Virus record (IMG/VR): IMGVR_UViG_3300042349_000541
Span: 30,773-94,772 of that record
Origin: a virus
Lineage: Duplodnaviria > Heunggongvirae > Uroviricota > Caudoviricetes
Strand: one strand, 5' to 3'
Length of the DNA: 64,000 bases
Of this stretch, positions 21,904-63,163 are shown one piece after another (positions within the stretch are counted from its first letter, which is position 1; every line of letters begins with the position of its first letter). The notes beneath the pieces were generated by a model. That model was not told the origin of the DNA and searched no databases. It saw nothing but the letters and a program-made list of their open reading frames with translations. Position numbers and translations under genes: made by a program.

Positions 21904-22351
21904 ATTCTTTGAGTATATTCATTATTTTTGTTTTGGCCGAGGCACTAATCTTTACGCCAGAACGTAGTTTTAAATAGGCTTTTCTATATTCTGCCGGTAT
22001 TATATCATCTAATTCATTCCAGTTAAACATGTTATTATATTCAACTTTTTTTATATCGAACGTGAGAGGTTCCGGTTGCACCAGATTTTTCTTGCACTCC
22101 TGAGCCTTTGTTATATCTTTATTGCCGTTAGGTCTAAAGTATTTGTCCCGTTTGAAAGTTTTTAAGCGGTTAGATATGTGTGTGGATACAAAATTCTCGA
22201 AGGGTCTTTTGCCATCCCATCTCTTATGTGCATCCATGCCCATAAGTATCGCCTCTTGTATTAAGTCCTCGGCGGTGTAATGGGCGAATTTGTACTTAGG
22301 AGCTATTGCTTTCGCAACTTTTATTATTAGGTCTATTTGTTCTTGTGACAT
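21884..22351 (-). CDS. Sigma70-family (region 2) RNA polymerase sigma factor
   Basis: EDLIQEAILMGMDAHKRWDGKRPFENFVSTHISNRL resembles sigma region 2. Confidence 0.7.
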   Translation of the reverse strand: MSQEQIDLIIKVAKAIAPKYKFAHYTAEDLIQEAILMGMDAHKRWDGKRPFENFVSTHISNRLKTFKRDKYFRPNGNKDITKAQECKKNLVQPEPLTFDIKKVEYNNMFNWNELDDIIPAEYRKAYLKLRSGVKISASAKTKIMNILKEYVEKNR

Positions 22352-27984: not shown

Positions 27985-28314
27985 CCCGAAGCACAATACT
28001 ATATGCTAGACCCAGTCCCGTGAAAGCCGGGACGGGTCGCTGCAAAGCGGCTCCGGTGCTCATAATATAGTAATATTATAATAAAGGTTGAATTTCGGTA
28101 AAGCTTGACGTTTTACTTGCCAACTGCCTTGTGCGGAAAAAATTCACCGATTATGTTGGTCCACCCTTGACAAAGGGGTGGGCCGACTTCGTCGGCCTCG
28201 AAACTGTCAAGTGTAATAAAAATATTTTTTTTGTTTGTGCATTTACTTGACATGGCAAAACCCTATGGTAAAATATTAGCATGTAAGTTAGTCAATTACT
28301 TCATGGAGTTTGAA

Positions 28315-31847: not shown

Positions 31848-31999
31848 TCCACTTGACAAATGCGGGCGGGCCGACAAAGTCGGCCTCGCAACGTACATCC
31901 TATTCTCGCTTTCTAGTTCTAATCGGTGGCTGTCAATTCAGCTTTCCGTTAGGAATGTTTATCCATTGGGATAATCACCGATTAAACTATTCTTTAGCG

Positions 32000-33660: not shown

Positions 33661-33733
33661 GGGAAGTTAGCTCATTGGTTAGAGTACGGCTCTTATAAGG
33701 CTGCGGTAATTGGTTCGATTCCAATACTTCCTA
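33661..33733 (+). tRNA. tRNA-Ile (TAT)
   Basis: Full cloverleaf, anticodon loop CTTATAA. Confidence 0.9.
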
Positions 33734-33773
33734 CTTGTCAAATATTTTCAGTTACTATTTTTAGGAGTTTAAC

Positions 33774-35265
33774 ATGCAAATTCACGACGTATTGGCTAGC
33801 ATTGATTCGGCAAAAATTGTTTCTTTGAGGACTAAAACTCAATGTAAGCTACTTGCAAAATCAAAAGTGCAATTTCCGAAGGGTGTAAGCAAAATTTCCA
33901 CACGCAATGGAATCATTGGTGCAAGCTACGAAAATGCCGTTAATAACGCACTCAAGCGAGAAGGTGAAGTACCGGACTTCAAAGCCGAATCGCTCTGGAA
34001 AGGCCAAGGACGTAGAGTTAGTAAATTCATCGTCCAACATATGGGTACTCAAAAGCAGTATCTAGCGTTTCTGCCTAAAACTAATGTTGACGGGCACAAT
34101 GTTACAAAGTCGGTTTATATCGACAATGCTACGGGACTTGAAGTATCCTATGAGAATATCAAGGATTATATGCCAAGCTACGGCACCAATTCATCCGGAG
34201 TAAATTGGCAAGTTATCGAGCTTACTAATGTTATCGGGCTGAAATCTGGCGATATCGAATTCAGTGTTTAGAACAAATGATGCATTAGTATAGTGGTATT
34301 ACACTATGATTTGCACCCATGCGTCTTTTTTTTGTTGACAAGCACAAACATTCTGTTATAATATGGAAGGAAAAAATAATGAAAACTAAAAAAATTTATG
34401 TTAAAGTTGAACTTGAAGTGCCTGCCAGAATGAAATCTGTAAGAGCAGCAGAACTGATTGAAAAATGCATCGAAATTGGGATATATGATGCCGAAGAGAC
34501 CATAGACGACGGAGATCTGGAAAATGAAGATGCAAATGATGCGATTTCGCTCAACGTCTTAAGTGTTAAATAAAAAATAATACACTTTTAGTATTAGGAT
34601 GACTAGGCTATGGATGATTACAAAAAAATTCTTCATTCTTGCGGTATAGGCGGTATTAAATGCAAATGCTGTCAACCACGAAAGAAAAAAAATAAAAAGA
34701 ATCGCAAACATAACCGATCAACGCGAAGAAAACTAAAACAGGTTTCCGAAAAACAAAATCCTTTATAGAAAGGAAAAAATAACATGAGTAATGATTGTTA
34801 CTACTTTCAATGCTATAAAACTGAATGGGTAACTAATCCTGTTTCCGGGCATAGCTACATTTCTTCTAGTTTTCCTTTGGAAAAATGGGAAGTACACGGC
34901 AAATTTTTACCAGTGTCATATCACGGATCTGAAAAAAGTGCTGAGAAAGAATATGAGCGACGTATGAAATTGCCTGATTATACACCGCCAAAAGGAAAGA
35001 GGACCGGAAAATGAAAACATGGGTATTGACACGAGAAATCAATGAGTACGATCAGGACGGAGAATACTTCGTGGCTGTTTTTAGATCTAAGCCAAGCATT
35101 CTAGATATAGCAAAAACATTAGAATGGAAAGGTGTAAAAACCATTGGAGATATTAATCCTGTAGAAAAAAAATACATAGAACATATTCTTGCTGGCGGCG
35201 GTCGGCGTGCCTGCATTAATGAGGATGTATGGTATCACTTAAGACAGGTAGAATATTCTAATTAG
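33774..35265 (+). other. Run of 5 hypothetical ORFs
   Basis: 33774-34271, 34379-34573, 34610-34768 (52 aa, very basic, below track cut-off), 34784-35014, 35011-35265; terminator at 35271-35304. Confidence 0.7.
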
Positions 35266-35324
35266 TTTCTAGCCCGCTGCATTTAGTTGCTTCGGGCTTT
35301 TTTTATTTCTGCGTCTGAAATGTC

Positions 35325-35790
35325 CGAATAATTCGGACTCGCACAAAGTATTTTAACCACGGAACATCCGATGTACCCCGTGCAGTATTTACGCACCGCG
35401 AGTTTATCTGGTTGGATACCTGATCCTGCCAGATTGGGTAGACTTGGGGAACAAGGAATGTTTACCTTATTACTCTCTATGGCTATACCTTTTATTCGGT
35501 ATCCAACACAGCCGAGTCGTTCTCCAACGTTGCTCGGATTTTTTTTTGTTATAGCCTAGAAAGATTTAGCGTTTGCGAGACGCTCTGGTTGTCACTGCCC
35601 GACGCAGCACTTTATTGGCACTACTAATGCCTCACCCCTCACTTACATTACTTTGTTATTTAACTTGGTTCCTTTTTGTTCTTGGACAGAACGGGCGAAA
35701 GCTCCAGCGAAACGCAACCCAGATCGTAATGTAGAATGAAAAAAAAGTAACAGTATGCCGGAAACCCATTCACATGCATACCTTTGTCCA
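35325..35790 (-). ncRNA. Candidate large structured non-coding RNA
   Basis: No credible ORF; minus-strand promoter TTGAAT-N16-TATAAT at 35823-35796; many perfect 5-10 bp helices. Confidence 0.55.
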
Positions 35791-35840
35791 GTTGTATTAT
35801 AGCATGAATTTGGGCGAATTCAACTGCTTTCGGGACTTTT

Positions 35841-36047
35841 TTAGAGAATTTCCCGCATTAATTTAACAAATTTTATAGAATTTAGGCATAAATCGCCCGC
35901 AGAAGCTTCAATTATAGACGTTTTACAGTCAAAACATATGTTGACTACCGGGCTTTTAGGTTTTTCCAGCCCGATTTGCCCCCAATTATATAAATTAGGG
36001 CGATATTTCTGTAGTTGTTTTTTCTCTCCACACAGTTCGCACTTCAT
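35841..36047 (-). CDS. Small Zn-ribbon-like hypothetical protein
   Basis: CELC...CFDC motifs. Confidence 0.55.
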   Translation of the reverse strand: MKCELCGEKKQLQKYRPNLYNWGQIGLEKPKSPVVNICFDCKTSIIEASAGDLCLNSIKFVKLMREIL

Positions 36048-36878
36048 GCTTATATTATAGCAACTACTGCCTAAAAATTAGGCAACCCTATAAAAATTTA
36101 TGCTGCCCGCACATAGAAAACACCCGAGCACAGTATGCTTAGCAGGCCCGCATTTTTACATGCATTTTTAAAACATAGCTTATGGCGGAATAATTCACAT
36201 TAGCAGGCCCGCAAACAGTAAAATCGCCCGAGAGCAATATATGCAAAAACATTGGGTTTTTTGATTTTAGGTGTTTTTTTTGGAAGGGGGATATAAACCT
36301 TGACGGTATATTGCTAAAAATGCATAATGGCGTAGATTCTTCCCATGACTACTATTTTTTTGTTTCTACACTAAAATCGTAAGTCGTTATGCCGCAAGGA
36401 GTTACGAAAAATGCGTAAAAAGTTTTTACTAAGCTCTTGCATTTCGAATTAGCTCCGGTATAATGATGGCATGAAAACAACGCTCACAAAAACAACCAAG
36501 CCAACACTCAAAACACTACTGGAACACTTTTTCATTCCATATTTAGACTTCCAAAAGAGCAGAATATCAACGAAAAGACAGGGATTTTGTTTGGGGGGTG
36601 TGTTTGTAAGACTTACACAACACAACCACCCCCAACCCCCCCTTTTCATCCTTATTCTACTGTTAGTATTGTTTACTTACTATTTATTTTGTTGGTTTTT
36701 TTGATTTCTCGATAAAAAATCTTTTCACAAAAGACTTGACAAGACGGTTTTAAGATATAAAATGTTACTACAACACGAGAACATTACTTTACCAATGTTT
36801 TCACTGATGAAACTTGTTGTTTCGTCAAACGATAGGTACGATTTTTTTACTTTTATTTAGTCTTAGGAGACTTAAATT

Positions 36879-61588: not shown

Positions 61589-63163
61589 ATGACTTTTAAG
61601 TATCTGAATCAAAAAACTTCTGTTCAAAATCCTATCGTCGGTCGCAAGGAAATGGTTCAAACCAACGGCGGCGGTTACGCTTTCAAGATTGACGATCTTC
61701 AAATTCTTGACAGATTTTTGAGTCTTGGAGCTACTTCCGGTACTTATTATATGTCGAAAGAAAAAGTACAGTATACCAATACTGAAAATATTGTTTCGTG
61801 CGTTCAGTCTGCTCCTAATGAAACATTAAATAGAATCGTTGAAGTTTCCAGTAAGGGTCTTGCACATAAGAACGATCATGCTATTTATGCACTTGCGTTA
61901 GTTTTTGTTCATGGAGATAACTCTGTAAAAACTAGGGCCGTTGTAGAATTTAACAAGATTGTACGAACTGCTACTCACTTGTTTATGTTTTGTGCATTTA
62001 TTAAAGAGATGCGTGGTTTTGGTAAGCTTGTACGTCAAGCGATTAACAATTGGTATGTATCAAAAGATACTAAGTCTTTTGCATATCAGGTTTCTAAGTA
62101 TCAACAACGTGAAGGTTGGTCTCACAAAGACGTATTTTGCCTGACTCACCCAAAGTTTGGTAAGACCACTAATATGAATAAGATTGCTAAGTGGGCTATG
62201 GGTAATTTGGATACTTCCAACCTAAAGCCTTCCGATGAAGGACTTGTTCTGTGTAAAGCAGTTGATGATGCAAAACACATCAAAAATGCTAAAGAATTAG
62301 TAGATCATATCTCGAATTATAAACTACAGAGAGAACATATTCCTACTGAATTTTTGAATAAGCCCGAGATTCAAGAAGCTTTGCTTCCGCATATGAACGC
62401 TACGGCACTTATCAGAAGTCTTTCGGTAATGACTGCTAGCGGGCTTATCTCGCCACTGTCTAAATCAACAAAGTATATTGTCGGCAGGCTAAATGATAAG
62501 GATTGGCTTAGAGGTCAAAGAATTCATCCACTTTCTATTCTAGTCGCAAATAGAATCTATGGGCAAGGCAGAGGAATGAAAGGTTCACTTACTTGGAATA
62601 CAGATAGAAATATTTTGGACGCACTAGAAAATGCTTTCTATAATGCTTTTGACGCTATCCAGCCTACTAATAAGAATTATATGTACGGAATTGATGTTTC
62701 GGGTTCGATGAGTTCCCATTTTAACGATACGCCATTGCGGTTCTGCGAGGTTGCAGCCGTTCTAGCGATGGCTCATGTGCGCACAGAGCCTTGGACATTC
62801 GTTGGCGGTTTTGCGAGCGGTTTTGTAGATTTAGGAATATCCTCCAAGGATACATTGAAGTCTGCTACTGAAAAATGCCTTAAGAATAATTTCGGATCGA
62901 CTAATCCTTCCGCAGTTCTTTCTTATGCCAAGCAAAATAAAATGGATGTTGATTGTTTCATAATTATCACAGATAACGAAGTTAATTCTGGTAATCACGT
63001 TTCGTCCGAACTTAAATCCAACTTCCCTAAGTCCAAGATGATTGTTTGCGGGCTTGCGGTAAATAACTTTAGCATTGCAGATCCTAAAAATCCTAACATG
63101 CTAGATATCGCTGGATTTTCCCCGGAAATCACTTCCGCTATTTCTTCGTTCGCACGCTCTTGA
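61589..63163 (+). CDS. rsr: Ro60/TROVE-domain RNA-binding protein (Rsr orthologue) with VWA domain
   Basis: NGGGYAF, LDRFLSLG, RTATHLF, KYQQREGWSHKD, TALIRSL, RIHP and MIDAS IDVSGSM. Confidence 0.93.
   Translation: MTFKYLNQKTSVQNPIVGRKEMVQTNGGGYAFKIDDLQILDRFLSLGATSGTYYMSKEKVQYTNTENIVSCVQSAPNETLNRIVEVSSKGLAHKNDHAIYALALVFVHGDNSVKTRAVVEFNKIVRTATHLFMFCAFIKEMRGFGKLVRQAINNWYVSKDTKSFAYQVSKYQQREGWSHKDVFCLTHPKFGKTTNMNKIAKWAMGNLDTSNLKPSDEGLVLCKAVDDAKHIKNAKELVDHISNYKLQREHIPTEFLNKPEIQEALLPHMNATALIRSLSVMTASGLISPLSKSTKYIVGRLNDKDWLRGQRIHPLSILVANRIYGQGRGMKGSLTWNTDRNILDALENAFYNAFDAIQPTNKNYMYGIDVSGSMSSHFNDTPLRFCEVAAVLAMAHVRTEPWTFVGGFASGFVDLGISSKDTLKSATEKCLKNNFGSTNPSAVLSYAKQNKMDVDCFIIITDNEVNSGNHVSSELKSNFPKSKMIVCGLAVNNFSIADPKNPNMLDIAGFSPEITSAISSFARS

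Follow-up and report, generated by a model that had tools for sequence, protein, structure and literature searches.

A conserved non-coding element and its leftward promoter in the early region of a freshwater phage: a candidate unclassified phage RNA

Results

Organization of the locus

The DNA studied here stems from an uncultured freshwater phage whose IMG/VR record is complete (168.8 kb, direct terminal repeats). The window, that is, the whole stretch of 64,000 nucleotides that was analysed, covers bases 30773–94772 of this record, and all positions given below are counted from its first letter. Structural genes are read leftward up to ~22.3 kb; beyond this point, a long early region is read rightward; it comprises numerous small genes and seven tRNAs, along with strong sigma-70-type promoters. 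Positions 35266–36470 form an ORF-poor stretch of 1.2 kb, and a gene-free part of ~500 bases sits within 35305–35823, with a leftward promoter (P1) at its right end. The features of the locus are compiled in Table 1.

Table 1. Features at the locus and sequence identity between the window and lineage C
Feature	Position	Strand	Identity (%)	Remarks
GP88-like gene			82	
165-aa gene			82	
77-aa gene			73	
91-aa gene			85	
tRNA-Ile(TAT)	33661–33734		84	
Intrinsic terminator of rightward operon	35273–35304	+		stem GCCCG/CGGGC, then T7; hairpin -13.6 kcal/mol
Perfect 17-nt palindrome, GTCCGAAT-A-ATTCGGAC	35322–35338			invariant in all lineages; -9.2 kcal/mol hairpin on the minus strand
Helix ACTCGC/GCGAGT	35337–35342 / 35398–35403			read from sequence
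Variable spacer	35347–35397		71	with GTGCG/TGCAC helix, not kept
Core	35398–35598		98	
Core folded domain	35405–35511			13-bp closing helix, near-invariant; alone z -3.0 (minus), -3.15 (plus)
Helix GTTGGATACC/GGTATCCAAC	35411–35420 / 35498–35507			lengthened by CTG/CAG to 13 bp (CTG-GTTGGATACC with GGTATCCAAC-A-CAG)
Hairpin CCGAG-CGTT/AACG-CTCGG, then T9	35512–35548	+		-10.7 kcal/mol; T7–T8 in relatives
Invariant 50-nt block	35549–35598			AGCGT/ACGCT hairpin (35568–35572 / 35580–35584); folding not above chance
Two small hairpins, CTGC/GCAG and GGCA/TGCC	35593–35631	-		loops change in lineages B and C, stems intact; wobble pairs gained on the minus strand
Second spacer	35599–35663		71	
8-bp helix TACATTAC/GTAATGTA	35644–35733 (35644–35651 / 35726–35733)			helix invariant; enclosed stretch not above chance
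Conserved stretch near P1	35664–35780		95	
Hairpin nearest P1, GGTATGC/GCATACT, then GTTAC and T-run	35741–35781	-		-10.2 kcal/mol; T8 here, T6 in all relatives
Promoter stretch	35781–35835		67	
Promoter P1, sigma-70-type	35796–35823 (read 35823–35796)	-		TTGAAT, 16 nt, TGcTATAAT; predicted start near 35788 (GGAC)
68-aa zinc-ribbon protein gene (CxxC...CxxC)	35841–36047	-	91	same length, 87–100% amino acid identity in relatives
Promoter P2 of the 68-aa gene	36057–36088	-		TTGCCT, 17 nt, TGcTATAAT; read from sequence

The intrinsic terminator at 35273–35304 is 97% identical to that of the relative G006, while the genes on its left have been replaced. As a result of this replacement, the exchange boundary of the module can be placed: the left edge of the conserved DNA is exactly the terminator stem at 35273. 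The left-hand genes themselves (34319–35265) share 23–65% identity with G006, and other DNA occupies their place in G005, L026, and L028. From 35273 to ~36105, both leftward promoters, the 68-aa gene, and the non-coding part are kept as a block, and on both sides of it the DNA of relatives has been exchanged or interrupted. In G005, a 552-bp insertion with two small ORFs lies at ~36106 (L015:2335–2885), and lineage C (defined below) has a 22-bp deletion within 36106–36163. These changes mark 36106–36163 as a point of exchange, where the leftward unit has its right edge.

Further motifs were noted nearby. GCCCGCA-type motifs cluster within 35895–36240 (at 35895, 36105, 36146, and 36207), together with two copies of TAGCAGGCCCGCA, 61 bp apart, and two of ATCGCCCG(C/A)AGA; all of these may represent putative binding sites. 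Between the two divergent promoter sets, 72 nt of non-coding DNA (36227–36298) that contain T-runs and a G5 run form another invariant block. Elsewhere in the window, a twister-sister self-cleaving ribozyme was matched inside the early cassette array (27998–28073, plus strand; 46.4 bits, gathering score 34), and a 118-nt tRNA-model match (61134–61251, plus strand) was found upstream of a Ro60-like gene (61589–63163, plus strand; phrog_850, E 1e-57).

The leftward gene and promoter P1

The 68-aa gene precedes the non-coding stretch on the minus strand and, by its kept length and amino acid identity, is clearly a real gene. The protein is weakly NinD-like (PF17466, E 1.5e-4, below the cut-off of that family; phrog_8091, E 7e-4). 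It is encoded by one of very few leftward genes within the rightward early region, and its promoter P2 is one of only four TGCTATAAT sites on the minus strand of the genome.

P1 is located 18 nt past the stop codon of this gene. In relatives it reads TTGATT, a 17-nt spacer, and TG-n-TATAAT, so that the spacer length shifts by one. Across the three lineages, 1 of the 12 hexamer bases differs, compared to 8–9 of the 17 spacer bases (Fisher p 0.04 and 0.02); the bases from the -10 element to the start vary as well, and TGGAC at the start site is kept. The same signature of kept hexamers and a variable spacer is displayed by an accepted rightward promoter at 36434–36463, and P1 matches the type of the many sigma-70-type early promoters of this phage. 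With hexamers at a spacing of 16 or 17 nt that persist while about half of the spacer has changed, P1 looks like a real promoter, and the minus-strand promoter that the sequence-only reading had placed at 35823–35796 was thus recovered at this position with its hexamers and TG kept in all three lineages.

Downstream of P1, the hairpin and T-run at 35781–35741 are the first element resembling a terminator that follows the stop codon of the 68-aa gene. Positions 35741–35780 are invariant, and 35781 is changed in lineage C. The hairpin is not a canonical terminator, as 5 nt separate stem and T-run; it may serve as a leaky terminator or attenuator.

Relatives and sequence conservation

Homologues were searched with DNA words, three neighbouring proteins, and a large protein collection. 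Thirteen further loci with the region were found, 84–98% identical to the window; together with it they make up three lineages: A (the window, L022, L030, and L031–33), B (L024 and L025), and C (L023, L026–29, and L034). The same three lineages, and only these, were retrieved from IMG/VR (two flanking proteins, the 68-aa protein, and two 21-mers), from a set of 5.8 billion proteins queried with the 68-aa protein and subsequently from the contigs of its matches, and from JGI metagenome contigs (one 21-mer). No match was obtained among GenBank phages by blastn, nor among GTDB genomes with one 21-mer. The next relatives as judged by the portal protein are only ~45–53% identical.

A covariance model of the core (R1) scored 204 bits on its own genome, where it occurs as a single copy; extra copies within the genome were looked for and none was found. 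The model matched none of 18 records with portal or other proteins 39–61% identical, five of which are near-complete. Two relatives with the upstream 84-aa gene, L003 and L004, have densely packed genes and no gap at that place. Given only three lineages at 84–98% identity and the null result of the model in the 18 records, the element belongs to a narrow clade of freshwater phages.

Between the window and lineage C, the core is nearly identical (Table 1). At the mean divergence of the region, the probability of four or fewer differences in its 201 bases is 3e-8. The core changes four to nine times slower than the adjoining genes, which indicates strong selection and hence usefulness to the phage. 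The tRNA-Ile(TAT) is likewise conserved less between the lineages than the non-coding core. The very high identity of the core could stem in part from recent exchange between phages.

Coding capacity

The sequence-only reading had described the stretch as devoid of ORFs. This holds in substance, not to the letter: ORFs of 37–62 codons are present, and none evolves in a gene-like manner, with lost starts, frameshifts, and almost exclusively replacement changes. For instance, the ORF at 35371–35559 lacks a start in lineage C and is frameshifted at the T-run.

Two short ORFs were considered as candidates for a small protein. On the minus strand, an ORF from the ATG at 35779, which begins 10 nt past the predicted transcription start, comprises 44 codons in lineage A (except for the window) and in lineage C. 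It is frameshifted in the window (T8 instead of T6) and extends to 61 codons in lineage B; all seven substitutions between A and C are replacements, and the position of its Shine-Dalgarno sequence is variable. On the plus strand, an ORF of 53 codons with a hydrophobic centre (35573–35734) is open and of the same length in all lineages despite a pair of +1/-1 indels, and one double change within it exchanges leucine for leucine. Its only start is TTG, an internal methionine is missing in lineage C, and five of seven changes are replacements, which corresponds to near-neutral change.

Neither ORF shows a kept start, a ribosome site, and a synonymous excess. Furthermore, no synonymous change was found in the first 13 codons of the minus-strand ORF or the first 9 of the plus-strand ORF, which reveals constraint at the level of nucleotides. 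Searches of the short ORFs against Pfam and PHROGs yielded no family match, and neither of the two ORFs covers the core. A small protein is therefore a highly improbable explanation of the locus, and the stretch is without a credible gene, that is, non-coding as read from its sequence. As seen from the pattern of substitutions, the region is under strong constraint that acts on nucleotides and not on codons.

The length of the T-runs deserves some care. The run at 35741–35748 is T8 in the window and T6 in every relative, and that at 35540–35548 counts 9, compared to 7 to 9; the long runs of the window could reflect true slippage or a homopolymer error of the assembly. For 35741–35748, this decides whether the 44-codon ORF is intact.

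Folding of the stretch

The helices listed in the sequence-only reading were all located to within one base of where it had put them. The further claim of a highly structured RNA over ~460 nt did not hold. The whole 499 nt gave z-scores of -1.62 (minus) and -1.72 (plus), with 7 and 5 of 100 dinucleotide shuffles, respectively, folding equally well, and a structure of the whole region was rejected on these grounds. What stands out from composition-matched sequence is the part at 35400–35550: for 35399–35548, z was -4.42 on the minus and -2.98 on the plus strand, and none of 200 shuffles was as good. Among 188 control windows of 150 nt from coding parts (mean z -0.19), 5 reached -3 or lower and none -4; in the hairpin-rich cassette region at 24–33 kb, z was -3 or lower in 23 of 234 windows. 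Positions 35586–35735 folded no better than shuffles (z +0.15 and +0.89 on the minus and plus strand). Only the ~150-nt part farthest from P1 thus folds above chance, and the half near P1 does not.

The 10-bp inverted repeat within the closing helix is not rare, as the window holds 84 pairs of at least 10 nt within 150 nt. A likeness of this helix to the docking helix of Y RNAs and Ro60 was considered and rejected, with no similar sequence at the Ro60 locus.

The five helices of the sequence-only reading (R1–R5) showed no variation across nine sequences, so that their support is neither gained nor lost. No compensatory change was found in any helix, a comparison whose power is nil with nine sequences from three lineages ~90% identical, and the RNAalifold covariation term was zero or penalising, with neither strand favourable. 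This lack of covariation is explained by the position of all helices in invariant sequence and by the presence of three lineages only. One proposed helix failed: in GTGCG/TGCAC, put forward with a G-U pair as specific to the minus strand, two of five pairs are lost in lineage C. The two small hairpins at 35593–35631 display the pattern expected of real hairpins, with four loop changes and one loop insertion and their stems intact.

An Rfam scan of the cmscan type, which the sequence-only reading had proposed as a check, matched no family at either gathering or permissive thresholds. With Rfam 15 at gathering thresholds, 35200–36300 had no match (the families include GOLLD, ROOL, 6S, tmRNA, RNase P, ribozymes, and riboswitches), and with E up to 10 the best scores were ~20 bits, compared to thresholds of 48–80 bits.

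Strand of the core

Signals for the strand of the core are mixed and point both ways. Fitting the minus strand only are two wobble pairs that extend CTGC/GCAG, a change from G-U to A-U in GGCAU/GUGCC, a change from A-U to G-U at 35644/35733 in one sequence, and a 7-bp helix AAUAAGG/CCUUGUU; the minus z-score is also better for 35399–35548 (-4.4 vs -3.0). Fitting the plus strand only are GGGC-GAAA-GCUC with G-U pairs and a change from G-C to G-U at 35753/35781. Moreover, the plus strand has two clean terminators, 35273–35304 and 35512–35548, the latter with T9 directly after the core. The hairpin of the latter (35512–35516 / 35533–35537) is kept in all lineages, with its sole change in the internal loop; it is a canonical intrinsic terminator on the plus strand, and on the minus strand it reads as an A-run followed by a hairpin.

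These observations would fit two convergent units, in which a plus-strand RNA terminates at the hairpin and T9 of 35512–35548 and has the core as its 3' end. This RNA would come from the upstream operon, through read-through or processing, or else from a promoter that escaped recognition. P1 would then make only a hairpin RNA of ~47 nt, to ~35741, and its hairpin and T-run, as the first beyond the stop codon of the 68-aa gene, would double as the terminator of that gene. The terminator after the core, canonical on the plus strand only and followed by at least seven T in all lineages, the plus-strand fold of core and terminator (z -3.0), and the base pairs that suit the plus strand only all agree with such an arrangement. 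We nevertheless regard it as unlikely: no sigma-70-like plus-strand promoter occurs at 35305–35405 in any lineage, nor is any plus-strand promoter recognisable between the two plus-strand terminators, the upstream terminator at 35273–35304 is strong (-13.6 kcal/mol, T7), the conserved positions 35549–35740 would be left untranscribed and unexplained, and the minus z-score is the better one. A late-promoter motif for the plus strand was also sought in the upstream regions of the structural genes, from which no clear motif emerged.

On the minus strand, no canonical terminator was found past the hairpin and T-run near P1. On neither strand do a promoter and a canonical terminator of the same orientation enclose the conserved part, as they would in a self-contained sRNA gene.

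Equal conservation on both strands and mixed strand signals would also be seen if the stretch acted as DNA, either as a replication origin, with the P1 transcript serving as primer or forming an R-loop, or as a platform for proteins that would bind the 17-nt palindrome and the 10-bp inverted arms, which are separated by 87 bp. The palindrome could be a hairpin or a putative protein-binding site. The ORF-poor region of 1.2 kb with promoters directed inward, the invariance of the inverted repeats and the perfect palindrome, the T and A runs, and a G-run on the P1 transcript (35629–35641) that is kept amid a variable stretch are in line with a DNA element. Such a role appears quite improbable, however, since neither iterons nor repeated boxes occur in the stretch, the near-identity extends over 200 nt, which is long for binding sites, and no replication genes were identified adjoining the stretch. 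The turn of the GC skew falls at window position 22126, together with the switch in gene orientation, rather than at the non-coding stretch.

Discussion

We favour a reading in which a non-coding transcript runs leftward and has the conserved core as its working part; we assign this reading a probability of roughly 0.4. It is the simplest account because it makes use of the real promoter, the block conservation of the leftward unit, and the nucleotide-level constraint together. The remaining probability, beyond the alternatives weighed above, goes to an explanation not considered here.

According to this leftward reading, a small transcription unit on the minus strand would be embedded in the rightward early region, in the order P2, 68-aa zinc-ribbon gene, P1, ~0.5 kb without a gene, and an end at the hairpin 35273–35304, with the non-coding stretch as its untranslated part. 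Host RNA polymerase with sigma-70 would initiate at P1 near 35788, and the conserved hairpin and T-run near P1 would probably halt part of the transcripts. The remaining transcripts would constitute a non-coding RNA of 250–480 nt, and its functional part would be the near-invariant core (35398–35598) with the 13-bp closing helix. We infer the minus-strand reading of the core, the end of the RNA, and the existence of a binding partner from this arrangement.

The RNA would work in trans, by binding a protein or a second RNA, and not through antisense control of an adjacent gene. The designation as antisense in the sequence-only reading was not retained: no conserved plus-strand gene lies opposite within 35305–35823, and relatives have exchanged the genes to the left of 35273. 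That reading had also proposed a large ncRNA of possibly new class. The stretch is indeed non-coding, conserved, and without an Rfam match, and the large structured form of 460 nt was not borne out.

We consider the element probably a candidate for an unclassified phage ncRNA, or else another conserved non-coding element, in either case of narrow distribution. A tentative and rather doubtful extension is that it founds a new family of phage ncRNAs of ~0.3–0.5 kb, expressed early from their own host-type promoter in a two-part cassette with the zinc-ribbon protein. In such a cassette, the near-invariant core of 150 to 200 nt would be the working part; it could, for example, bind proteins or act as a decoy, with the zinc-ribbon protein or a host factor as its partner.

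Many RNAs of unknown role are found in large phages, and the present one has an unusually large complement: tRNAs, tRNA-shaped RNAs, Y RNAs with Ro60, and a twister-sister ribozyme. The binding partner of the core could reveal a new use of RNA by phages in early infection. With the element known from three close lineages in lake metagenomes, we regard it for now as a lead and not as a discovery.

Comparison with known systems

Primer or R-loop transcripts at replication origins are exemplified by ColE1 RNA II with its antisense RNA I and by oriF and oriG of T4. Shared with these origins are a host-type promoter, a predicted untranslated and partly folded transcript of ~0.5 kb that leads into conserved DNA, a G-run, and features on the opposite strand that end in terminators. 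In contrast to them, the present analysis identified neither an origin function nor an antisense promoter or replication genes, and the GC skew is unsupportive.

sRNAs derived from 3'-UTRs, such as DapZ and MicL, share the 3' end and terminator of a gene and have their own promoter. Similarly, P1 lies 18 nt past the stop codon of the 68-aa gene and before the first hairpin and T-run on that strand. The hairpin and T-run here, however, are not canonical, and this class leaves the conserved 200-nt core, located 200–390 nt onward, unexplained.

The hairpin-plus-promoter cassettes of the same phage, which resemble the PeSL of T4-like phages, have edges that are exchange points and sigma-70-type promoters, as does the unit described here. 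They differ from it in that their GGGCCGAC-loop-GTCGGCC hairpin stops at 31888 and is absent from 35266–36470, and in that the leftward unit is mostly non-coding.

GOLLD and ROOL are large ornate ncRNAs of phages and prophages for which cryo-EM structures are available (PMC12286853). The element deviates from them in several respects: it has no Rfam match at E 10, only ~150 nt fold above chance, covariation supports none of its helices in the nine sequences compared, where power is nil, and it is known from three near-identical lineages only. It resembles them as a non-coding stretch of several hundred nucleotides, conserved above the neighbouring genes, in a large phage with tRNAs and other RNA genes. 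Its resemblance to these two RNAs appears to be one of setting rather than of membership.
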